DNA from: Mytilus edulis
Taxonomy: Eukaryota
Direction of reading: 5' to 3'
Length of the DNA: 64,000 nucleotides
Assembly (NCBI RefSeq): GCF_963676685.1
Contig: NC_092351.1
Coordinates: 37,944,001-38,008,000, forward strand
Shown: positions 1,963 through 19,254 of the stretch, in pieces
Layout of the letters: each line of letters opens with the position of its first letter
Position numbering within the stretch: position 1 is the stretch's first letter
Program-made: the position numbers and the translations under genes
Notes under the pieces: generated by a model
Database searches by the model: none
Told to the model about the DNA's origin: nothing
What the model saw: only the letters and a program-made list of their open reading frames with translations

Positions 1963-2548
1963 TTAAGAGGCTGTCCATTTGAAAACCAGGCAAGGGATGC
2001 ATAAATGTTGGCACATTAAATTTTCTTGAAATTAGTTTTTTTGCATTAAATGTCCTTGTCATTAGATGTAACAAATGGTGTGTATTTATTATTTGGATGA
2101 AAGTTTGATATAGTCTAAAAATTTGGGATGTTTTAGTACCTGGTTTTACCCTTTATGTCCATTGTAAAAGTGCAATTTTTAAAATTGTTTTTTTTTTGTT
2201 CCACATTTATTTGAAAGGTAAAAATTGTTTAAATAGTAAGATAAATGTGTAATTCATACTATTAAACTAAAAAAATATTGGGATCTACATTATTAGTGCC
2301 TATTTCTTTGTTTGAAATATATCATAAAACTAGTATCTGGATTACCTCCCTTTGAATACCAGTGGGAATATTTTCAATGAATATGTTATTTTGTCAATAA
2401 AATATTACAATTAATATTCTATCAATGATAATAAATTACAATATTGGGGAAAACACACAAAGACTGTGATAAAACTCTTTTTATTGAAAAAATAAATTAA
2501 AAAAATATATTTACTGCGGATTCATTTACTGCATTTGTATACAAGAAA

Positions 2549-5500
2549 ATGGAGGGAATAAATGACTCCTGCAGTTTCAGCAGGTTAGGAGATTGTTCTG
2601 GCCATATCATCCATTTTCTTGATTGCCAGAAAGATGTTGTTGCCCACCTTAGATATCTAAAAGTGTGTACTACAGGTTCAAATGTAAATGAGCAGGATCT
2701 GATACTGTATCGCGCCGGATTGTTTGATGTTGATGCAGCCTGCAGGCAATTACTACTGATTTGCCAAGCCCATAGAGATTCTCTTGGGACTTACTGGAAA
2801 ACAAACAGTTCGAAATGTGCCTATCCAGTCCATTCATCAAAGTGTAAAGGAGATAGAGCCATTGACTTTAAAACTTCAAAAGAACTATTTTTCTTGTATC
2901 AATCCTTGATACCTGTTGGAAGTGGTAAGTTACATGTAATTCAGGTTGTGCCCTTTCCCTAATATGTGTCTATTGCCCAAAGCCTACCAAGCTTACAGAA
3001 CAGGTACATGTACACATGCAGTATATAAATGTCAGACTCATTTCGACACCCAATTTATATGTCATTATATAAAACAAGCATCCAAATCAACATCTGAGTT
3101 TTGGCTCCTCAAATCAACATCCATTTTTGTGGAAATGCTGCAATGACATTTTGCATCGAATGACTTTATTTATGGCTTTTTTGTGTCTTTCAAAATATAA
3201 ATAAAATACAGAAATAATTGCAGGATAAAGACAATAATTGTCTAGTGTTTTTACAGAATATCTGCTGTATTTGTACCCGGCTCGAAACAGGTGTAATAGC
3301 TCGCTAAAAGCTCGCATACACCTATTTTCCTAGCCTTGTACAAATACAGCTGATTTTTAAAGACACTTAACAGTTATAGTCTATATCTATAATACTAAAA
3401 TTACGAAGTCCAATTTTTCAGCCGTCATCACGTAAAAACGACGAATCAAAGAATTCAACTTTATATATCACTAATATAGTACAAAGGTGTAGATTGAAAA
3501 TTACACCACTCCAGGCCCTTTTGTTTTCCACGTAATTAATATTGCCAATAATTAAGAAGTTCCGGGTCAAGTCCGATACCGATACCAATAGTATATTCAC
3601 CTGTTACCTATTACCTAATCTGTACGTTCCGCATCTGACAGGCGCACCACCAAACGGTGTATTCAGGGTTAATACCTATTGTAGTATTTTAATCAGTAAG
3701 ACTTTCTAAGATAACAAGACTAAAAATGAGGAACAGTTTTCAACTTGTTAGTGGGCATATACATGACGTAAAACAGCGAATCAAAGAATTCATCTTTAGT
3801 AAGTTAAAACTAATATAGGACAATGTTGTTGATTAAAAATACTCCATTCCAGGACCTTTTGTTTTCCAAATAATTAATATTACCAATAATTTATAAGTTC
3901 CAGTTCGACGGGTTCAAACAGAAAGATTTGAAAGCAGAGAAAAACTGTGTATCTTATAATCGGCATGACTTTATCAGATGACCATACTAATACTTAAACA
4001 AGGCTTGCGCATAGTTATATACCTTAATTCAGTCACGGACCCGCGATATCACGGGTGTGTTCTAGTATTAATATATATATGCAGTTAGGGAGCTACCATT
4101 TGATTTTTAAAGGGGGTTATGAAAATATTGTCCTGCATTTTTACAAGTTTATCTTATTTTTGTTGGCCCAGTTGCTCAGTCATCGTGCCTATTTTTTACT
4201 CCAAACTCCTGTCCTGTAATTTTTTTACCCAGAATTTCAATCCTACATGTACCTATAAATGTTTTTGTGGCAAGTGTGCAAAGGACAAAATCGCACACAA
4301 TACATAGAACATATACAAGTTATCAATGAATAGGGCCTTTATTCCTGTTCTCCATCTTGACATTCACCCGACGGTCTTCAACATTGAAAGAATAATTTTA
4401 CCCTACAAGATGGCCACTAGCATGACTAGGGTCCGCTGAAACAGTACTATTGATAAACATAACCATGTTCAGGTGCTTGCTCTCCCCCCACTGTGGCGTG
4501 CCTACTTGGATGATATGTGTGTACGGCATTTTTCAAGTCAAAAGCACCGGGGATACAAGAAAAAATGAAGTGATTTTAAAAGAAATTACCCCATAAACAA
4601 GCTTTGAAGCTACAAATGTTAAAAGCACTCAATGAATTTCAAAACTTGTAATTACGGGCAGGTTTGCCGATGCCAAATAAAATAATGTGTGTGTTTCCTA
4701 TTACATTGTACATGTACATCTTTGAAAAAAAGAGTAGGTACGTACATTTTGTACATGTATAATATAATAATACTTTATTTTCCGAAAGCAATACAACTTA
4801 TGTAGTTAGTGAGTCTAGGAGGGAAATCCTTACTTTTAAAAACAGTGCTAATGAAAAATGGCAAAACAAACTTTAAGGTACATGTACATGTAGGCTATTT
4901 TTAAGCTTAAATATAGGGAAGTACATTGTAGAGAACACATATATTTTTTATTTGACCTTTCACATACATTGTATTAGTCAATTACAGTCATATATTTCCC
5001 AACAAAAGACCAATACATGTACATGTACATATATAAAACGAAACAAAAATGATAGAAGGCACTTAGCACATTGAAATATAATATATCATTATCTATGATG
5101 AGTTTATTATATGTAAAAAATTAGAGCAGTTTTAAAATGTACGAAATGACACCAAAAAAAATGATGACTAGGCCAATATTTTGAAGAAATAAAAAAAATA
5201 TTAATAGCCATAGGAGGTCAAATTAATCAAAGAAAAAATGCACAAGTTGCAGATAAATGAACTCAATTTTTTTGTCTGTTTATGATTATTCCATATTCTA
5301 ATTACATGAATATCTTGACTGACTTGAAATTTCCCATCTGTCAGACCTGTTTTCTTCCCCTTTATTACATGTAAGTAAAATTCCGAATATTTTAATCTGG
5401 ATTTTACCAGGGCGTTTTTTTTTTAAATTTTATTTACATCCGATATAAATTTTTCCTTTGTTTATATTGGCCTTGTAAAATTTGTTTATCTTTTTTTTAA

Positions 5501-8500
5501 ACTTTTGCAGGAATATGTAAGCCATGTAGAACTTCTCACCCTCATGTGATTTCTACAAGGAGTCAAATGTACAGGACAACTTCATATGGTGATGATACAG
5601 AATCAATAGAACTTGCAAATTTAGGTATGATTTATATAAATTGTTGTCTACTCTACATGTATATAATTTCAGTTATCCAGTGAACATATATAGTGAACCT
5701 GTAAATTTATGAAAAGCTTTAAGAAAAGCTTATGGTCTATGCCATAATTTCTGGTATTCAGTGGATCTGTAAATTTATGCAATCTTACGTAAAACTTAGA
5801 TTCGAAATTGAAGTCAACTCGAAGTTCAAATCTTGAAATACAAAAAGCAAAGCTGCGTTATCATCTATATTTTCTGGTTCTTGCATCCGTCTGTCAGTTT
5901 GTCCGCCTATCCCGGATAAGTTTGAATTATTTAGTAAAGGAAGTTTGTTATGAAGTAAAAGTCTCACTAATTTAAAACCTAGTGCACACGTCCCTAATGA
6001 TGATAAGATTTTTAATCTGAATTTAAAGTTCGGACTAGAAGTTATTAACTCTACAATAAATTTTGAATAATTAGATTAAACTTTGGCCACGCTTAACCTT
6101 TGCTAATGCTCCTTTCACTTATTTTTTTAATATCTGCAGCATGATACTTTTATTTTATGAATTGTTTTGGTGTTTTTTAAGAAACTTTTTTATCATTCAC
6201 TTTCTTCATGAATAATTTTAATGCCAGGCTTTTTCTTGATTTTTAATTTTAAATTTAAACTATATATTATATATATATTTTTTCAACAGATATTTACCAT
6301 GAATTCGAAGATGATAAGGATGATTCTTGCAACAACAATACAAGTACCAAAAATTATGAATATGCCACAGAAAAAGAGGAACATTTCACCCTTGCCAGCT
6401 GCAGTCAGACTTCTGATTGTGGATGTTAGTAAATTAAGTACATTTTGTAATACAGAAAACCAAAAAGCTTGTTAATGAGAAAGTTTGGGGACACAATGAA
6501 TAAATGATTATGGTCCAAATAGCACAGTATGATACATTTCCCGGAGATGAAAATACCAAGAGACCAAACAGTCCTTTAAAGGGCTACCAAATTGTTTAAA
6601 AAAGAATCTGTTATTGTTATTTTTAGTCAACATTTATTTTTTAAATATCTCTCTGATTTTAAATTGTTACCTCTCTTCCCTGAATTACTCACAAAAATAC
6701 TATTGAAACAATTTATCAGAATTATATGATAAAGCGATTACATGTAATACAGGGCCTTTTCCATAACAGCCTGGGTATCATCCCTCGACCTATATTGGCA
6801 CTCAACTAAAGTCTCGGGGTGTTGTGTGGGTCACTGAATGATACCATGGCCAATATGGAAAAGACCATGTATATTAATCTACCGGTATGTATAAGAGCTG
6901 TTGTCTTTAAAAAAGGAAAAAAAATACTTTTTTGCAATTTCTAGCTAATTATATAATTTCATTAATTTGCAGTGTAAATCATAACAGATAATTAAAAACT
7001 TTTTGTTTCACTCTTGGGTAAATGAAAGGGTCATGAGATTTCTAATTTTTCCAGGTACGCAATTCAGGCTTTATAGAGCCTCTATTAATATTGGAGGATC
7101 CAGGGGGAGGGTTGTTGGGGTTGGAACCCCCCTTTTTTGGGGCGATCAATGCATTTAAATGGGGACATACAGTTGGAACCCCCTCTCCCCCTTTGTCCTT
7201 GGTTGGGAACCCCCTTTTTAAAATGAATCCGCCCCTGATTAATATTTATTGAAGAAATAACTGGTAAAATACCCAACAGAATAAAATATTCATATACATG
7301 TATTTATTTTCAGCTTATTTCTTTCCAACTCAAAGTACTGCCACGGTGAGCAGCCATGAAGAATGGGAACCTGAAATGTCTGGCTTAGAGAAAGTCAATG
7401 CTGTTATCAAACTTGTTTCTGATGGCTCTTTTCCACTATTGAGGTAATGTTATTTTTTGAAAAAGTTTTGGTCGTACATTGGTATCAGGTAGGCGTCGTC
7501 GTAGTGGTTGTCTTCTGAAGACATTTGGTTTTCGCATTCTAACTTTAGTAAAAGAAAATAAAAATCTATGAAAAGGAAGGTTGGGATTGATTTTTGGTCC
7601 CAACAGTGTACATGTAGAAATAAGGGGCCAAAAAGGTTTAAATTGAACATTATTTGGTTTCATCAAAAATTAAATTCTTAGGGTTCTATGATATGCTGAA
7701 TCTAACAATGTATTTAGATTTTGGATATTGGACCATAAAAGGTAAATGTCCAATTAAAGATTTTTAAGTTTTTTAAGTTGAAGTTCTTTGACCACATGCA
7801 CTCTGTGTCAGAAACCTACATTGTATGTTGTGTAAACTATTTAAAATCACAATCCAAATTCAGAGCTGTATCAAGCTTAAATGTTGTGTCCATACTTGCC
7901 CCAACCATTCAGGGTTCAACCTCTGGTCAAAATAAAGCTGCGCTCTGTGGAGCATCTGGTTTTACATGACTGCACAAAAAATGTATTTGTAACATTATAT
8001 TGCTGTCAGTCTATCATGTTAGTGTCATTGTCAGCATGGTCAATAGACATTTGGTTTCTAGACAATAACTTAAGTATTTATAAATGAATCTTTATGAAAT
8101 TTTACCAAGAGGTTCGGTGTCAAAAATGGTCTGAAAACAAAACTCAGTAATGCGCATCAGCACAGTATTGCACAACAGCAAGAAATCTTCAATTGAAAAT
8201 AAAACGGTACAAATCTTTTTACCAATTTCAATGGGCATTAATTAATTTCAAAATGCAAAAGATTAATATGTTCCATGTGATATGATCTTTCTTAATTAAA
8301 AACAAAATTAATCTTTTGACCCCATTTTCATGGTCCACTGAACATAGAAATTAAAAGTGTGAGTTTCAGGTTAAAGTTTTTGGTCAAGGTAGTTTTTGAT
8401 GAAGTTAAAGTCCAATCAACTTGAAACTTAGTACAAATGTTCCCTTGTGGTTGATCGTTTTACTGTTAAGGCCGAATAAGTTTTTTTTACCCAATTCCAC

Positions 8501-11500
8501 TGTCCATTGAACATGGAAAATGATAATGCGAGTGGGGCATCCGTGTACTTTGGACACATTCTTGTTGTCAATAGTATATGCTTGAAAATAACAGAAGAAT
8601 GATGTTTAAAACAATTTTTTAGATTTTGTAGCTTAGTTCATCATCCAAAATGGCTGCCAGCGGGAGACTTATTTTAACTTAGGACCCTATAGGAATTACA
8701 TACAAATGTCTCTTTTGAGAGAACCACTGAATGGATTGAAACAAAACATGGCATGAATGTTCCTTATGGGGTGCTGACTAAATGTTGTTAATTTTTATCC
8801 GATCCATCATTCAATAAGGGCGCCAGCAGGGGACTTAGTTTAACATATAAGACCCTACAGGAAATACATGCACATTTCATCTTTTAGAAAACCACTAAAT
8901 GGAATGAAACCAAACATGGTATGATTGATCCTTATGAGATGATGACCAAGTGATGTTACTTTGTAGCTTTATTCATCCCCCAAAATGGCTGCCAATGGGG
9001 GACTTACTTTAACTTAGGACCCTATAGGAAATACATACAAATTTCTTCTTTTAGAAAACCTTTTTATCGATTGAAGCCAAACATGACATGAATGTTCCTA
9101 ATGACTTAGTAATGTGGTGCTGACCAAGGGTTGTTACTTAGTTACTTGTACTTTTTTGTAGCCAATCCATCATCCAAGATGGCTGCCAGCAGGGAACTTT
9201 GTTTAACATAGGACCCTACGGATAATACATGCAAATGTTCTAATAATCTTATTAAAGCCAGGTGAGCAATTCTGGCTCTCATGTGCCTCTAGTTTTGCTT
9301 GTTATCTCTCTATTTACATGTATATAAGTTTCTTCTTATATTTCAGATCTCAGCTTACAATACCTTGGGAATCAGCGTCAAAAAGAACACAAAGTTATTA
9401 CTTGAAAAAAGCTGATGACTTGGTATTAGGAACTTTACAGCTGATTGCCCCAAACCAGTCAGACACCTTATTTAAGAGTATTGTCCAAAAGAACAAGACA
9501 GTTAACCTTGATTGTCCTGATAATTATCTTCCGTCTATGATTGCTGCATACCAAGAAGCAGATTCTCCATATCTTAAACGTCAAATTTTATCACTATTTG
9601 CAAGTAAATATTCTAAAGAGGCTTTATTGACCGCAATACCTGGTTTGACAAAACACAAGATAGAAGCTGCGAGAAAATATGGAAAGGTCAAAGAAACAGA
9701 ATTGCTAGATCAAGACCATAATATGACTGCCAAACTTCCCATCGAAAAAGTTCAGCATTTTGTAAGTTTTGTATCTCAGCCACAATATGTTCAAGATGTT
9801 GCATTTGGAGAAAGGATCCTTAAACTATCTACTGGACAAAAAATACATATACCTGATGTTGTTAGAACAGTAATAGGCAGTCGAATAATTTCATCTTACA
9901 AAGCATATTGTTCAGAATCAAACTTTGAACCGTTGGGAAGATCAAGCCTGTACAACATTTTGAAGCAGTGTTCAGCAAGTCAGCGTAAAAGCCTTAGTGG
10001 TTTAGACAATACAACAGCAGATGGTATAACATCTTTTGACAAGCTAATCAGTTTGACAGACAATATGGAGGATTTCACTCAAAATGAAGTTCATGATTTC
10101 AAGGTATTTTATTCAATATTTTTGGATACAGATGCCCTATAATTTGTCCTACCATATGTCTTAGTAAGATCCATATAACTCGTTTGCCCACCATAAAGGA
10201 ATGTTACTTTGTAGAACTTGTTTTCATGTGGACAGTAGCTGACCAATTCTCAAAGTTTTCTAGCAGTTATGAATGCGCTAAAAGAATATTTAAACCTCAT
10301 ACGGAAAAAATATCAAAATTTGCAATGAAAATATAAATATCAGATGTATAGGTATTTACAATCTTGTAACTTACATACGGTATGCTTTGAAAGTCCATGA
10401 TCTATCTTCACGGACAGTTCCAAGATCAAAGAACTCGTATGAGATTACATCTACATATATATGAAATTCTGGAAAAATTACATGTTTGCCCAAATCATAA
10501 CTTTATACATGTAATTGTTTGAACATAATAATAGAAGGATGAAACTATGTATGAATGTAGAGTAATTTTTTTACAGTGCAATTGTCAGTTTGTAATCACC
10601 AATGACTCACCATGCAGCATGTCATATTTCTAATGCATTTTACAGTTGTATAATTTTCATATGAATATAAAGCATGTTATACATGTATAAGGGATGATAT
10701 GAATACTTTTTTTTATCTTGCAGGACATTCAACGAAGATTACGAGCTTCAAAGCGGTATTTGTCTTGCGATTACAGATGGCATGTTGAAAAATCATCAAA
10801 AGTAGCTGATCATTGCATGCATTATGCTCTTAGTGATTCAAACGTAAAAGATTTACAAGAGAAATGTGATCATACACATGACGAATGTTGTGAACTGTGT
10901 ACAGATATGAGCTCTGTAATTGACGACCTAGAGCAGATTGTTATAGATGGAACATTTCCATCAGAAGAAATGAAAACTGAATATCTGCATGACTTCCAAA
11001 GCTGCAAGGAAAAAGTGTTTCAGTGGAAGCAACATGTATTGAGAACAGTCAGTCAAGAACAGGCAAAACATTTGGTTCTTGAGAATCTTCTTCCAAATGA
11101 AATTTTTATAGTTATGGATTGGGCAATGAAATTTCTTCCATGGTTTGACCGTGAAAAGCAAACTGATTTTTATGGTAAAAAGGGAATTAACTGGCATGTA
11201 AGTGTTGTATTATCCAGAGGTATTGATATGAAAATCAATACTGACTGTTATGTACATTTGTTTGACAGTATCCCCCAAGGATGGTATGCTGTTGCTTCAA
11301 TAATTGAGAGCTTATTAAACTGCATAAAAAGCAAAGATGAAACTAAAGATACAGTATATCTTCGTAGTGATAATGCCTCCTGTTATCACTGTGGACCACT
11401 GATGGCTGCTATTCCAGAAATTTCTCAAAGAACAGGATTAAACATTTCTCGGTACGATTTCAGTGAAGCTCAAAGCGGTAAGGATATTTGCGACAGAAGA

Positions 11501-14500
11501 ACTGCTCCAATGAAGATACATGCAAAACGGTTTGGAAATGAAGGTAACAATATTACAACTGCAGAAGAGTTGAAAAGAGCCCTTGAAAGTTATAGTGGTA
11601 TCATGAACACACATGTGTATGTTGCTGAAGTTGATTTTAGTGCACAGACTATGAAAAAATGTTCCATACCAAACATAAATATGTACAACAATTTCAGCTT
11701 TGAGATTGGAGGTCTTAGAATGTGGCAAGCTTATGATGTTGGCATAGGTGTCTTCATTTCATCTAGGGATTTGAAGAAGATGTCAAATGGAAAACAAGAT
11801 GAAACAAATCTTAAGGTGAGTAGAAATTTAAAACAAGCCAAGTGTATAGTATTATTTTAGGTTTAGACATGCAGGAAAAGCCCTTTTAATCAATAAACAT
11901 TCTGACAAAGTGTGTTTTTCTAACCAAACTAATCCTTTGACAAATAAAAATGTACCAAGTTCAAATGTAAATAACTTTTTTTTAATATCAAATCTATACA
12001 ATTGGCAAGGTTGATGGTAAATTGAAAGGCCCAAGTAAAAAATTGTATAACAACAAAATATAGTTATAATTTTTTGCCCTAGGTCTTCTCCTTTTCTAGA
12101 AACATGTTCAAGTTTAACATGGTATTACACTGTCATGCCTGTTATTTTTTACCCTTGAAATAAATTCACAAAAAAATTTGAATTTTAAAGAAAAAAAACC
12201 TGATCCTAATTTTAGAGTGGATGTAAAAGGAAGCACAATTTTTTTTTCCTTTTTGTCAAAGAACACTAATGAATTCATATTGAATAAGAAGTGTACAATG
12301 TTATAACTTTAAAATTACTACAACTTGTTTGTATTATTAATATTTTTGCTTGACTATATTGTAGATACTGGAAATGCCAAAAGTTACCAGAATAGGAAAG
12401 AGTAAAATAAGACCAAGAAAGAGCCTTAAGAGGAAGCACAGTGAAACAAATAATGAAAAGGTTTTCATTTTTTTTCTTATTTTTATGATACAATATGAAT
12501 AAATGAATAAGAAGATGTGGTATGAATGCCAATGAGACAACTCTCCATTTAATACACAATGTAGGTAAAGTAAGCTAGGATTTTTATCAAATCAGCTGTA
12601 AAGGACCCCAAAATGGCCAGTAAAAATCTTTTTCAAGCCAGGAAAACAACAACCTTATTATAACGTATACAAAATAAAAATGAACACACGAAAACAACAG
12701 ACTGAATTAGAAAAGGTTTTTACAAAATGCAGCAAGTTTGTATGTTTTAAGTTCATCTCCCTTTTGGACTCCTCAAATGTACATTTTACATGAATGTTGA
12801 ACTAAGTAATAATATATAAGCTTTAAAAGTCCAAAGTCTGCTCAAAGATCCTTTAACTTACTAAGGTAAATTTTACATGTTTAAAACTGAGTTAAATGTA
12901 AAATTTACTTTCTTAACTGTTATCACCTATATCAATTTTAGATAACAATATTGGAAATATGTGTTTATGATTAGTATATTTTTACAGGAAAGAAATGAAA
13001 CAGGAGATGTTGAAGACAATATAGAGGAAATAAATGAGGAGAACACAGAGGAAAATGCTGCTAGTCATGAACAGATGAATGAGGTAACAGATACATATAG
13101 ATTCTTACACTAAAACAAGTGTACTATGATAATTCTTCACTCGAGACAGTTAAATTTTATTATTTAAAGCGCAAGGCTTGCCGAGCCCTTTAAATAATAA
13201 AATTTAACTGGTGAGAGTGGAGAAATATCGTTATACAGGAGTTATAGTGTCGGAATCTGTTTCTCTAATGCTTTTTATCGTTCTTTTTCAAAGATTTTCA
13301 GAAAATTGTGTTCTTTATATGCGATGTCATCAGGCAAGGTCGCCTTTTTTCATGACGTCACAATAGGAAAATGGAGAAGAAAACAAAACATTTTGACGTC
13401 ATAATCAAATTTCGACTAATCATTTGCCGTGAACAGATTTTTCACTAGTGAGGAGAAATATTTTTCTCACACCGGTCAGGAAATGTGAAAATAGCACAAA
13501 AATTAGAGAAATACAATGTATATTCTTTTGTGGTTAACATCACTATCCTTTCATCTTGCAAAAGAAATTAAGGATGGACCAATCTATCTAGACTTTGACA
13601 ATATTGTTCATAGATATAAGAAGATGTGATGTGAGTGTCAATGAGACAACTCTCCATCCAAATAACAATTTAAAAAAGTAAACCATTATAGGTCAATGTA
13701 CAGCCTTCAACACAAAGCTTTGGCCCAAACCGAACAACAAGTTATAAAGGGCCCCAAAATTACTAGTGTAAAACCATTCAAACAGGAAAACCAAAGGTCT
13801 AATGTTTGTTTAGGTTTTATTAGTGTCCTGTGTTGTTAGTGTCTTTATACCCCCAAATAAACAAGTTTTCAGGGATATATATAGGAATCACCCTGTCGTC
13901 CCTCCATCTGTCTGTCCATCACATCTCATAAGTGCAACTCTTCCTTAGTATTGATGTAACTTCAAACAGTTGTAGTACACAACCTAAGGATGTGGACAAA
14001 GGAAAATATTTAAGGATGGAACTATTTTAAGGGAGATAATTGACTTTACTTAGTTAAATATACATCTAGCAATAAATGGCAACAAGTCTTGTTAGCGCAA
14101 TTACTCCTAAAAAGAATAAAATTGATGAAACTTTACCCAGTTGTACACAACCTGAAGATGTGCATGAAGGAGGATATTTCTGGTCTGATTTTTTTCAGGG
14201 GAGATAATTGAAATTACTTAAGTTTAAATACCCACAAATTCGTTCAAAGTATACATGTATGCATGATAGAGTGATTCAATTCTGCTGTTTTTTCACTTCT
14301 TTTATACAAATGTATTTTTTTTTCTTTTGCAGACTGATGACTATACTTGTGGTGAATGTGGTCTTACATTTGTTAGTCTACATGAATATAACATTCACCA
14401 GGACATTGGAAATCATAAGATCAGGCATGCTGATCGAGTAAAAACTTTTTGGAGTAGTAAATGCACTAACATAAAAGAGTCAATGACAAGTGTTTTTTCA

Positions 14501-14893
14501 AAAGCAACTGATGATCAGACACCACAGTCTAAAACACAATGTTCACTACATTCAGGATGGTCATTGAAAGGAAGAAGAATGAATAAGAGATTTAGCATAG
14601 CTGTAAAAGACTATTTACTTAATTTATTTATGGAAGGTGAACAAACTGGCCGAAAATATACTCCAACAGAGGCTTCCAAAAAAATAAGAGCAGTCAGGGA
14701 TGAAAATGGGAATAGGCTTTTTTTGCCAGAAGAATGGCTGAGCTCACAACAAGTACAGGGTTTATTTTCCAGATTTGTCAATCAATCTGGAAAAATTCCT
14801 AAAGAGGAATCTGATGATGAACTAAATGATGCTATTATAGAAATTACTCGTCAGGAAAATGAACTTGCACTAATTCATTCAATTTGTCAATGA
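2549..14893 (+). CDS. Sola3-type DDD transposase, 9 predicted exons, ~1118 aa, with an N-terminal Cys/His-rich region and a C-terminal C2H2 finger
   Basis: Exons 2549-2924, 5511-5624, 6290-6424, 7314-7443, 9347-10103, 10724-11815, 12365-12460, 12988-13083 and 14333-14893. All are GT-AG and phase-compatible, totalling 3357 nt without internal stops. Motifs: MDWAMKFLP..FYGKKGINWH, LRSDNASCYH, FSEAQSGKDICDR and YTCGECGLTFVSLHEYNIH. Confidence 0.82.
3234..3378. repeat. Long imperfect palindrome (hairpin end typical of the small Crypton-like elements in this window)
   Basis: ATAATTGTCTAGTGTTTTTA..CTGTATTTGTAC..AGGTGTA..AGCT/AGCT..TACACCT..GTACAAATACAG..TAAAGACACTTAACAGTTAT. Confidence 0.6.
3386..4065 (+). 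mobile_element. Non-autonomous Helitron-like element in transposase intron 1
   Basis: 5' A|TCTATAATACTAAAA. 3' hairpin CCCGCGATATCACGGG followed by CTAG|T. Internal ~140-bp duplication (~3425-3560 vs ~3762-3900). Confidence 0.7.
6746..6876. repeat. Degenerate long palindrome (hairpin element)
   Basis: TAATACAGGGCCTTTTCCATA..GGTATCAT pairs with ATGATACC..TATGGAAAAGACCATGTATATTA. Confidence 0.5.
7091..7237. mobile_element. GC-rich MITE family (GGCGGATCCAG...GGATCCGCCCCTG); second copy at 61891-62013
   Basis: Shared core GATCAATGCATTT(A/G)AATGGGGACATA(C/T)AGTTGGA and inverted GGATCC ends. Confidence 0.6.
7470..7965 (+). mobile_element. Degenerate HINE/Helentron-type non-autonomous element
   Basis: 5' (CGT)n-like microsatellite. 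3' hairpin GCTGCGCTCTGTGGAGCA followed by TCTGGTTTT. Confidence 0.45.
8590..9296 (+). mobile_element. 3' part of a HINE/Helentron-type element with ~170-190-bp internal tandem repeats
   Basis: The unit ..ATGGCTGCC..GGACCCTA(T/C)..GAAACCAAACATG repeats about four times. Ends CAGGTGAGCAATTCTGGCTCTCATGTGCCTCTAGTTTT. Confidence 0.65.
13099..13511. mobile_element. Small non-coding element with a terminal ~160-bp hairpin plus an internal/terminal inverted repeat (Crypton-like end structure)
   Basis: Hairpin AGATTCTTACACTA...TAGTGTCGGAATCT (13099-13258), immediately followed by GTTTCTCTAAT, whose complement ATTAGAGAAA ends the element at 13502-13511. Confidence 0.65.
13843..14215 (+). mobile_element. 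HINE-type 5' fragment
   Basis: TTTATACCCCC..GGGATATATATAGGAATCACCCTGTC followed by a (CTGT)/(CCAT) microsatellite and two ~170-bp subrepeats. Confidence 0.45.
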
Positions 14894-15836
14894 TTTTTGT
14901 CGAGCCTGCAACTTTTGTTGCAAAAAGCTCGAAATAGGGATAGTGATCCGGCGGCGGCAGCGTAAGCTAATTTAAAAGGTTTATATTTTGGAAGGTGAAC
15001 GACAAGGAGGCTTCATTCTTTGTATATACATTGTAGATGCCTCATGTCACAAAGTTTCTGTCAGTCACATGTCCAATGCCCTTGACCTCATTTTCTTGGT
15101 TCAGTGACCACTTGAAAAAAAAGTTCAGAATTTTTGTAATGTTGAATTCTCTCTTTAATATTATAAGTAATAGGATAACTATATTTGGTATGTGCATACC
15201 TTGCAAGGTCCTCATGCCCGTCAGACAGTTTTCACTTGACCTCAACCTCATTTCTTGGATCAGTGAACAAGGTTAAGTTTTGGTGGTCAAGTCCATATCT
15301 CAGATACTATAAGCAATAGGGCTAGTATATTTGGTGTATGGAAGGACTGTAAGGTGTACATGTCCAACTGGCAGGTGTCATCTGACCTTGACCTTATTTT
15401 CATGGTTCAGTGGTTATAGTTAAGTTTTTAAGTTTTGGTCTTTTTAACTTATATTTTATGCCAAAGGTCAACTATATTTGGTGTATGTAAATATATTATG
15501 ATCTATATGTCAGTCCCGCAGGTTTAATTTGAACATGACCTCAATTTTACGGTTCATTGCACAGTGTTAAGTTTTTGTGTTTAGGTCTATATTTCTTAAA
15601 CTATAAGTAATAGGTTAACTATATTTGTTGTATGGAAGCATTGTTAGCTGTACATGTCTGTCTGGCATGGCTCATCTGATCTTGACCTCATTTTCATGGT
15701 TCATTGGTCTTTGTTTAGCTATCATGGTTTATGTTAAGTTCATGTGACGTTGTATTAAAGCTTTATACTTAGGAATATCAACATAATAACAATAATTAGT
15801 AAAGAAGGCGAGACATTTCAGTGTGTGCACTCTTTT
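14894..15836 (+). mobile_element. HINE/Helentron-type non-autonomous element (same family as 50110-51227), inserted directly after the transposase stop codon
   Basis: TTTTTGTCGAGCC..AGCTCGA, (GGC)n, internal TGACCTTGACCTCATTTTCATGGTTCA repeats, and 3' GGCGAGACATTTCAGTGTGTGCACTCTT. Confidence 0.8.
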
Positions 15837-17383
15837 TCTTTTATGCTGGAACTAAAATATTTATTGCAATGTTTTGACCAACCTTTTGTGATATTCCTTT
15901 AGATTTACAGTTTGTTTCTGCTTCATAATTTTTATGTACATGTAGCCATCATGGTTCAAGATTTAAAAGTCCATGACACAAAATTCGAATATATATATAT
16001 TATATATGTATTTGCATGAATTATAGCAATGCATTAGGGTTTTAGCTGAGGTGCTACCAGACTATTGGGGATGGCGGATAGGGGTAAAGGTGTTAAAAAT
16101 TGTTTTCAACAGTTTATATTCCTGTCAAACCCTATAATTTACACTTACTTTGCTTGTTTTAATAAAAGGTCAAGGTTTCAATTACTAAACATGATAAAAA
16201 TAAAAATATTTCAGAAATTAGTTTTTTGAATGGAAGTTTTCTTGTGCACTATGGTACCATTTAGACTTTTATTGTTGTAAATTGAAAGACAAGAAACATG
16301 GAATAAATACTTGCACCTGTCTGCAAGTTTAAGGAGGTCATGGTTAAATTCTTAGTTTAAAAATTTGTAGTAAATGTACAGACAATAATTATTGCTGACG
16401 AAAATAGAATTTGTTGGGATTGGTCTTAGAAACGGGTATAAATGTGAAGTTCACGGATACTTTCCTTGCCTATTTTATTCTGTAATTTTTGCAATATTGT
16501 GTTCTTTCAACTTATCTTGAACATGTTGAACCTTATTTAAATATTAGATTGATCTATTGGAATAAAAATAAATCATTGCCATCACTATTTGCTTATTTGT
16601 GAGTTTGTGTGTAATTTAAATACATGATCATCTTGCATCGTGATCTTATATTATCCATGGAGAAATTGAGGCTGCACCAATGTTAAAATATATTAAACAG
16701 GAAAGCAGTTATTATTTTTTTAGTTACTGATACCCCTTTCATTAAGAATAATGAGATTTGACTTTATTAAAAGAAAAATATGCATGCATGTGTAGAAGTT
16801 TGATCTGGCAATAATACAGTTTGAAGCAGTTTTTTGAGCTGAGAGGGGTATGCTGTTCCGATTTTTTTAGCCTTACAGGAATGTGATCCCACTAAATTTT
16901 TTGTTCTTTTTATTAAAGAATATGATAATCTGTTAGCTCTATATGGTAAATTTCCAATATTTACCATGGATGGAATTCCAGAAGACTTCAAAAATGGTTG
17001 ATTTTGGCAAAATGAACAATTGGTGTTTTGGATGTCCTTATTAGGTGTTTTTTTTCCTTTGTCAATATATTGATTATAACAAGTAATTTATGGAATAGGT
17101 ACACTAAGGTGGATATTATCTTGTATCAATATAGTTAAGCTCTTTAAATTGTGATTAAGAAGAAATGTTGAATTGAAAACGTAGTAAAAATCAGTTTTTC
17201 TTGGCTGTTTCTAAGGCAAAAATGATGATGTTCGTGTTGCCATGGCAACCATGCACATTTTTTTCCGCAGACATTTTTTTTTTTCATTTCATGTCTTAAA
17301 TAGACCTCATGTAAAGTTTCATTGAAATCTGAGTCCCATGATGTGCCAACCATTGCCTGAGTTTTCCTTGGACAGCCTCTTAA

Positions 17384-18152
17384 TTCAAAACAGTCACCAA
17401 TATAACAGCCCAGTTTTTCCATAGAGTAACATTTTCTTGGGTCAAGAGCCATAAAAATTTAGAAGATTTATTTAAATTTATAAAATAATAACAATTGTTA
17501 GAAATGTCTTGGAAAAAAATCGTCCCTTTGAATATCATAAAGAGGGCATTCTAATAAAACATGAAGCTCATCTTCAACTTTACCGAATGAGCAATTAGAA
17601 CAAAGACGCTCAGATCTTTCTATATGTTTTTTTGAATATCTGTTTGTCTCAATTTTTAAATGAGCGCTTATTCTTAATTTACAAATTGACTGTCTTTTTA
17701 TGAAGTCCTGTAATTCTAAATATTTTTCTTTTTTAAAACATTTTTTTCCCTTTTTCGGAGTTAATGGTTTGATGCTTCGGTTTATTCCAAAATATAAAAG
17801 AACTTTTACATAGTTTATTTTTAACATACTGACATAAAAAACCAATTGATTGGTCAAAATTTGGTAATTCAATCTCTTTCTGAATATAATCTATACTATA
17901 GAATACTATGTATTTACATTAGAACTATGTAACTGTATGTTTACAACATATAAATGCATCAAATAATAATCCTTCTTTCAAACATTCCAGTCTATGACAA
18001 TATTTTAACATTGATAAAATTATAGTAAAATGCATAGGAAATCTACCAATCTCTGACATTACAGCTATATTACTTGACTTTCTGTTTGCACCAAGAATAT
18101 ATTTCATAAATTTGGTATGAGCTTTTTCAGAAGAATCCTGACCAAAAACTTG
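17384..18152 (-). pseudogene. 5'-truncated LINE ORF2 C-terminal fragment (post-RT region and CCHC-type finger), frameshifted
   Basis: KYILGANRKSSNIAVMSEIGRFP and KLRISAHLKIETNRY..RLCSNCSFGKVEDELHVLLECPLY are typical non-LTR retrotransposon C-terminal motifs. Confidence 0.85.
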
Positions 18153-18435
18153 TTCCTATAGAGAACGTTCTATACTATAGTAGATATGTAATATTCAGAC
18201 AACAAGGGATCCTGTAGAACGTCCTTTAGTGTATACATGATAAACAAACAATATAAGGGATCCTATAGAACGTTCTGTAGTAGATATATAAGGTTCAGAC
18301 AACAGGGGATCATGTAGAACAACCAGGGAATCCTGTAGAACGCCCTAACCATGCTAACAGTAGCTTTATTGTAAACCAGTAACAATGGTTCCTATAGAAC
18401 GTACAGCTATAGTAGAATGGTCAGACAACAGGGGT
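18153..18435. repeat. Distal, more degenerate part of the same ~120-bp satellite array
   Basis: GGGATCCTGTAGAACG and CAGACAACAGGGG motifs in the same orientation as 1-1722. Confidence 0.85.
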
Positions 18436-19254
18436 CAAATTACAGATTCGTTTCTTTAAACGCAGACCAGTTTAAACACTCTCTCACACCCCTGTAAAGC
18501 CTTAGTACGTGTAACATGTTTAACATGTGTAAGCTACATCTTTTTTCAATTTGCCTACCATTTGCCTACATAAAAATACTCTTTTAAACGGATAATAAAA
18601 ATATTATTAACTCCATAGTATATCCAAAGCCATGGGACCACGTGCATGTGACATTTGCAGGTCTTTACAACATAATTAAGGCACTAAATACTACTGTTGA
18701 TCATATCTATATGAAATGTATCATGTGTATTTTAAAAAGGAATCTGTATATATATTTGCACAATGATATATGCATGATATGCTACTGTAATGCGGTACAT
18801 TTTCCTTTTTTTTTCATGTGATAAAAAAATAAATAAAGCAAATTCACCGTGTTTCATGAAAGTTAATGATTTTGAATCGGTTTTTTTAATAGTTGTACAT
18901 GTTGAGAATATTCTATTTTTAGAATAAGTATTTTCAGAATCGTTTATAAATAGCCTATAAATAGAATATGCATAATTCATGAATCGTGACGTAGGGCGGT
19001 CTACGGGATCCCTTCTTCCGCTTACCTAATTATTTGGACTACTCAGTGCTTTCTTAAAATTATTTGAAATCAATGTGATCGTTTTCATGATGAACACTGA
19101 GCGAATAATGACAAGATAAATGTAATTTTATCCACTAAACTAAGTAAAATATAATCATAATAAATAACTTGTCGTTGAACTTAAAAATGATGATCGATGA
19201 ACAATCTGCTGATTCATATCGTATCATTCTAATGTTCTGACTTACTATGCTCGA

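Follow-up and report, generated by a model that had tools for sequence, protein, structure and literature searches.

A 15.4-kb Sola3 transposon of Mytilus edulis that very probably moved as a unit with repeats aboard its introns

Has a DNA transposon that carries many other repeats moved as a whole, or is it a relic, a duplicated block or a gene kept by its host? The question is raised by a 64,000-nucleotide stretch of the Mytilus edulis genome (contig NC_092351.1, positions 37,944,001 to 38,008,000; hereafter the window, in whose coordinates plain positions are given), where a preliminary description had placed a giant Sola3-like transposon with a nine-exon gene. The element occupies positions 1967-17379 (15,413 bp), is bounded by two TTAA, and is very probably an intact Sola3 transposon that moved as a unit with its passenger repeats, using a spliced transposase with three aspartates (DDD), short ends and pasting at TTAA. 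The observations that carry this answer are the gene structure, its splicing, the TTAA duplication, copies at multiple sites, passenger junctions identical between copies, stepwise passenger gains and the ratio of non-synonymous to synonymous substitution rates (dN/dS).

The right flank of the element is a young multi-copy repeat with at least 40 matches in the genome, seven of them (window included) at 100% among the matches listed. In all five empty paralogous loci of this host repeat that were fetched, the left and right flanks meet at one TTAA; this establishes both the proposed target-site duplication and the insertion of the element into the host repeat. Its termini read GAG..CTC, and Sola3 as described by Bao et al. 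in 2009 reportedly has TTAA and GAG..CTC ends. The terminal inverted repeats (TIRs) are short and patchy, as had been noted (Table 1), and comparison of the first with the last 400-1500 bp of the element gave no inverted match above about 50 bp. The host repeat itself (1-1966 and 17380-19000) is young and multi-copy, contains 119-bp tandem units, and has short minus-strand open reading frames (ORFs) at 17498-17890 and 17925-18155 with no Pfam match, which we take to resemble the end of a non-LTR (long terminal repeat) retroelement.

The nine exons, all GT-AG, splice to 1118 amino acids (aa) without a stop, and all eight junctions were found in transcript contigs, seven as GT..AG joints and that of exons 2 and 3 as adjoining pieces of one contig. 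Among the runs behind these contigs, X7 is a long-read transcript library and X1 is RNA by guess only. Alternative in-frame donors for exons 1 and 3 were ruled out by the RNA joints. In raw RNA reads, junctions 6 and 8 were each covered by two reads of run X24, and run X21 gave zero junction reads. An NCBI model of 1118 aa from Mytilus galloprovincialis (P0087) and an M. edulis protein (P0089) are identical to the window protein at 1117 of 1118 residues, and a fragment from M. trossulus shows 98% identity; NCBI annotates the transposase as an uncharacterised gene.

A search for homologues gave 81 proteins, the majority of them unnamed or of molluscan or cnidarian origin, and 77 were aligned. 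The three aspartates put forward earlier as catalytic candidates, D636, D720 and D761, are conserved in 77, 76 and 77 of these, and a cysteine/histidine cluster in exon 6 (C535, C552, H556, C560, C563) is invariant. The predicted structure (predicted local distance difference test, pLDDT, 79.8) contains an RNase H-type core in which D761 opens a helix behind the fifth strand; the best Foldseek matches of this core are retroviral integrase cores (E 2e-4). A DDD triad in an RNase H-type fold is what characterises Sola, and its catalytic role here is predicted from the model. The helical region encoded by exon 5 is likely to bind DNA. As a separate observation, exon 6 shares 62% identity with an oyster (Saccostrea) protein, P0002, more than with any of the other Sola3 families detected in this genome (44% at best over long matches), which may reflect old vertical descent or horizontal transfer.

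Sola3 is TTAA-specific, and its TIRs typically measure several hundred bp, with exceptions and without this length being defining. The present ends fall short of it, and the element is therefore filed as a short-TIR Sola3 variant. Repbase, according to the accessible part of its description, groups elements by transposase similarity (PMC4455052). Residues 627-757 follow the 131-position RNase_H_Sola3 profile consensus (supplement of PMC5751038) without a gap; in a comparison by eye, unscored and covering positions 1-42 and 69-131, 52 of 105 positions were identical (24 and 28, respectively), including seven of the eight upper-case ones, and the spacing from first to second aspartate is 84 in both. 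Membership of Sola3, as had been suggested, is thus supported by the transposase core. A Pfam scan of the transposase exons returned no transposase family, which is expected for Sola judging from the available portion of PMC5751038. The 4-bp TTAA duplication likewise agrees with Sola, for which the accessible text of PMC10741241 gives a 4-bp target duplication, lengths mostly of 2-9 kb with some above 15 kb, and TIRs of 11-1124 bp, subgroup unnamed.

Two other groups are TTAA-specific, Kolobok and piggyBac, and it is hardly credible that the element belongs to either. Its TTAA duplication and RR..YY ends do agree with Kolobok, which also occurs in mussels, as described in the part of PMC9587614 available; the same text, however, defines Kolobok by a C/DxxH motif between the second aspartate and the last acid and by a second protein, KolX. 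The window protein has CxH at 724-726 in place of C/DxxH past the second aspartate, the ORF list holds no second long ORF, and the core fits the Sola3 profile ungapped. As to piggyBac, exons 1, 5, 6 and 9 gave no DDE_Tnp_1_7 (PF13843) match up to E 1.

Further copies were sought genome-wide with exon 6 and both element ends. A second complete copy on chromosome C6 (C6a; 16,557 bp) has an intact frame of 1117 aa with every splice site kept, so that two of the places found hold a coding-intact copy. The C10 copy is 5'-truncated with exons 4-9 intact, its 5' part not being found within about 26.7 kb upstream; C4 and C14 are deleted fragments; C6b, C11a, C11b, C11c and C8b are older defective copies; and C5 is a 207-bp miniature, a non-autonomous derivative. 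The young copies (window, C6a, C10, C4, C14) lie on five chromosomes and are 0.3-1.5% apart, the older ones 5-10%. The tree drawn from distances and shared sites is ((window,(C14,(C6a,C10,C4))),(C6b,C11a)), with the older copies at 9-10%; 15 sites unite C6a with C10 against one and one for the alternatives, and C14 is placed below C6a and C10 partly because it lacks an 850-bp insert.

Copies that share passengers could also have arisen by segmental duplication or gene conversion, in which case the sharing would have no bearing on transposition of the whole unit. The irregular right flank of C6a and the single ends of C10, C4 and C14 would fit such an origin; yet homology stops at the TIR and TTAA wherever a copy retains an end, the flanks being unrelated, TTAA adjoins 11 of 13 termini of the other copies, the window copy interrupts a host repeat and has duplicated TTAA there, and the shared sites are tree-like. 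We regard duplication of this kind as largely refuted and very improbable. At the right end of C6a (L033:8495-8520) we also observed, after 5 bp, 8 bp of the element's own end in inverted orientation, so that a short hairpin spans the junction; aborted excision and repair may have left it as a scar, or it may be due to chance.

Nine stretches of the window element recur elsewhere in the genome, about 3.9 kb in sum or roughly a quarter of the element, and none lies in an exon, in agreement with the earlier placing of all passengers in introns or past the stop. In each genome search the best 40 candidates were scored. Between Sola3 copies, the passengers are more alike than any is to its best free copy scored: 99 against 81% for 8590-9295, 98 against 92% for 14894-15832, 99 against 97% for 13095-13510, and 99-100 against 98% for a 665-bp miniature inverted-repeat transposable element (MITE), which is direct evidence for their having been copied along with the element. 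The stretch 3389-4075, which we take to be Helitron-like from its end structure, is present in no copy but that of the window. The view that many passengers are decayed holds for 8590-9295 and 14894-15832, but not for 13095-13510 (96-97% to free copies) nor for two parts of 3389-4075, whose best free copies are 95-99% alike.

Passengers were acquired stepwise along the family tree. The repeat at 13610-13801 entered after the C8b split, and three passengers (8271-8561, 13095-13510, 14894-15832) were gained on the branch of the young clade, C6b having empty sites for them and both C6b and C8b for the last. C6a, C10 and C4 carry the 665-bp MITE (TAA duplication) inside the HINE-like 8271-8561, after 8371; C6a and C10 have in common an 850-bp MITE (8-bp duplication); and a 177-bp insert is private to C6a. 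Losses accompany these gains, since the young clade lacks a 181-bp stretch that C6b and C8b have.

Some further observations concern individual passengers. Of the hairpin at 3257-3357, one arm (window 3238-3304) is gone in C6a and in C6b/C11a with differing breakpoints, which suggests repeated deletion of the hairpin. The passengers at 14894, 13095 and about 7457 start 1, 12 and about 10-14 bp from an exon end, a post hoc remark on few cases that T-rich sequence may explain. Members of the 665-bp MITE family are also found tandemly arrayed, repeating about every 1407 bp (G000:C9:56896884-56922198; C13:45694772-45698251). In the C10 copy (G000:C10:9915727-9918271), a non-coding insert of 2548 bp with TIRs of 11-13 bp and a 3-bp duplication lies within the 416-bp passenger, after window position 13325.

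Table 1. Positions of the ends, exons and passengers of the element in the window
Feature	Position	Strand	Remarks
Left target-site duplication TTAA	1963..1966		Sequence; single TTAA in 5/5 empty paralogues
Left TIR	1967..1999	+	11 bp perfect, 25/33 match ungapped; extra 10-bp shared block at about 2007-2016
Exon 1	2549..2924	+	aa 1-125, Cys/His-rich N-terminus
Hairpin, 31-bp arms	3257..3357		Candidate repeat family; partly missing in C6a and C6b/C11a, with different ends
Helitron-like passenger	3389..4075	+	3' hairpin then CTAG; private to window copy
Exon 2	5511..5624	+	Frame and transcript junctions
Exon 3	6290..6424	+	Frame and transcript junctions
GC-rich MITE-like passenger	7103..7238		Common to older copies C6b, C11a
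Exon 4	7314..7443	+	Frame and transcript junctions
HINE-like passenger (putative class)	7457..7961		Begins about 10 bp past exon 4 donor
HINE-like passenger	8271..8561		Gained in young clade
Old passenger, 168-bp tandem units	8590..9295		99% to C6a, C10; 91% to C6b; 81% to best free copies
Exon 5	9347..10103	+	aa 252-504, helical region
Exon 6	10724..11815	+	aa 505-868; Cys/His cluster and RNase H-type core with D636, D720, D761
Exon 7	12365..12460	+	Frame and transcript junctions
Short high-copy repeat	12507..12582		Same family as 13610-13801
Exon 8	12988..13083	+	Frame and transcript junctions
416-bp hairpin passenger	13095..13510		Young-clade gain; 99% to C6a, 96-97% to free copies
High-copy repeat	13610..13801		Absent from oldest copy C8b; present in C6b and young clade
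Probable old passenger	13972..14231		Two 92-bp matches 168 bp apart (within-window comparison)
Exon 9	14333..14893	+	aa 933-1118; stop codon; weak C2H2 finger match aa 936-957
939-bp HINE-like passenger, 147-bp units	14894..15832		In T run directly past stop
Right TIR	17347..17379	-	Pairs with left TIR
Right target-site duplication TTAA	17380..17383		Sequence; empty paralogues

The ORF is under purifying selection. Between the window and C6a, 12 of its changes are synonymous and 6 non-synonymous (dN/dS 0.13; binomial p 2.5e-5), the comparison with C10 gives dN/dS 0.14, and window and C6a differ at 18 of 3354 exon positions against 146 of 11,267 outside the exons (p 1e-4). Movement and selection had been offered as alternatives; each holds, and they hold together. 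A low dN/dS and the annotation as an uncharacterised gene might also be read as a domesticated host gene selected for a cellular role. Against this, the sequence is multi-copy at unrelated sites, has intact ends and a 207-bp non-autonomous derivative, and was inserted into a young multi-copy repeat, so that domestication is extremely unlikely. A protein outside Sola, unsupported junctions and a single-copy locus had each been named as grounds for abandoning the idea of a mobile Sola3 element; none of the three was found.

The sparing of exons was rejected as proof of selection. Exons make up 26% of the target, and none of the eight dated gains lies in one (P 0.09; 0 of 14 would give P 0.015); moreover, the copy was chosen as intact, nine insertions in defective copies lie outside exons too, and HINEs favour T runs, according to the accessible part of PMC4067079. 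T runs are twice as dense in these introns. The clean exons are largely the outcome of choosing an intact copy.

Copies on several chromosomes that contain the same older intron repeats make cut-and-paste movement with passengers aboard likely. In such a process, the 1118-aa transposase would pair the two short ends, excise the element and insert it at TTAA, a cut-and-paste chemistry suggested by the integrase-like fold and the DDD triad. The unit moved would measure from about 14.7 kb (window copy minus its private insert) to 16.4 kb (C6a minus its private insert). Gap repair would restore donors and so add copies, while interrupted repair would yield internally deleted ones. Insertions in introns would be spliced out of the mRNA and those past the stop would be harmless, and both would ride along. 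With about two coding-intact copies per genome there would be little transposase for defective copies to borrow, and for this reason only lineages with clean exons would go on, those with a broken exon founding no new copies.

How recent this movement was is a separate matter. The preliminary description held that the element still moves as a 15-kb unit with older repeats; a unit of 15-16 kb with passengers is what we find, and "still" is better put as very recent movement, as the 0.3% between the youngest copies indicates. That the family was active recently and is now immobile, its intact copies being fresh relics, is in our judgement unlikely: coding-intact copies at just two of the places found, the rest being truncated or deleted, and few raw RNA reads on the exons point that way, but the youngest copies are only 0.3% apart, spliced transcripts are present, and three Mytilus species have near-identical annotated proteins.

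Several points tell against an intact Sola3 element that moved whole. The signs of present activity are indirect (an intact ORF, spliced RNA and 0.3% divergence), and the transposase seems weakly expressed (of the two raw RNA runs, one had no junction read). C6a has no TTAA at its right end and C10, C4 and C14 keep one end each, so that among the young copies a perfect duplication pair is found only in the window copy. A closer free copy of a passenger may exist beyond the best 40 candidates scored. Of the Sola1, Sola2, Sola3 and Kolobok profiles, the unscored comparison by eye took in that of Sola3, and the TIRs are far below the length of most Sola3.

The element offers a dated example in which a DNA transposon has dispersed other, older repeats within its introns: one passenger, no more than 81% similar to its free relatives, now occurs at 99% identity on three chromosomes. 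It also provides an intact Sola3 transposase whose ends are defined, for use in an assay. Repeat landscapes would assign wrong ages to such passenger copies, and automatic annotation would break such elements into pieces. The case bears, too, on the size limits of cut-and-paste elements as treated in the available text of PMC6431247. Tentatively, and with rather less than even confidence, we picture a mussel lineage of giant short-TIR Sola3 elements in which length is nearly free of cost, one or two working copies are long kept by selection, HINEs and MITEs act as a size ratchet and dead repeats are ferried along; the window copy would be a live, TTAA-specific member with 30-bp ends and a natural 15-kb load, suited to testing Sola3 chemistry directly for the first time.

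The literature covered, with Repbase Reports and subscription journals outside it, contains nothing on large mussel Sola3 elements with short TIRs, nor on passengers in Sola3 introns. A bivalve survey, in its accessible part, counts 64 Sola3 ORFs and curates consensus sequences for Sola1 and Sola2, with none for Sola3 (PMC10294476). Sola elements above 15 kb and TIRs of 11 bp are in print, to judge from what is available of PMC10741241, which lessens the surprise. Among enlarged cut-and-paste elements, the 16-20-kb red-algal EnSpm and the Pack-MULEs (PMC6431247, same available text, which nowhere mentions Sola) likewise hold large cargo between TIRs; unlike theirs, the cargo of the window element consists of non-coding repeats in introns and not of extra genes.

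Set beside the Sola3 group as represented by its profile (PMC5751038), the element is alike in core fit and aspartate spacing. It differs in its length of 15.4 kb, its eight introns and the quarter of its sequence made up of other repeats. The TTAA and the GAG..CTC ends are typical of Sola3, while patchy TIRs of about 30 bp contrast with the several hundred bp usual for the group. In this genome, such size and short TIRs are the rule for Sola3, which corrects the earlier impression of an unusual element: four other families, B-E (L079-L101), measure 12.3-16.3 kb, have TIRs of 24-30 bp and hold 1.5-3.6 kb of other repeats each, with TTAA at 10 of 12 ends in six copies. Their proteins are 27-47% identical to that of the window family over matched stretches, and they have fewer core introns at other positions; C and D end in GAG..CTC, B and E in CAC or GTG. 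Across the five families core intron positions vary, a break near aa 126 being common to four, which suggests that introns were gained or lost inside Sola3 transposons. With four other families of the same build, the window element is typical of the mussel lineage and not a one-off; it is a short-TIR, cargo-laden form of known Sola3 and involves no new mechanism.

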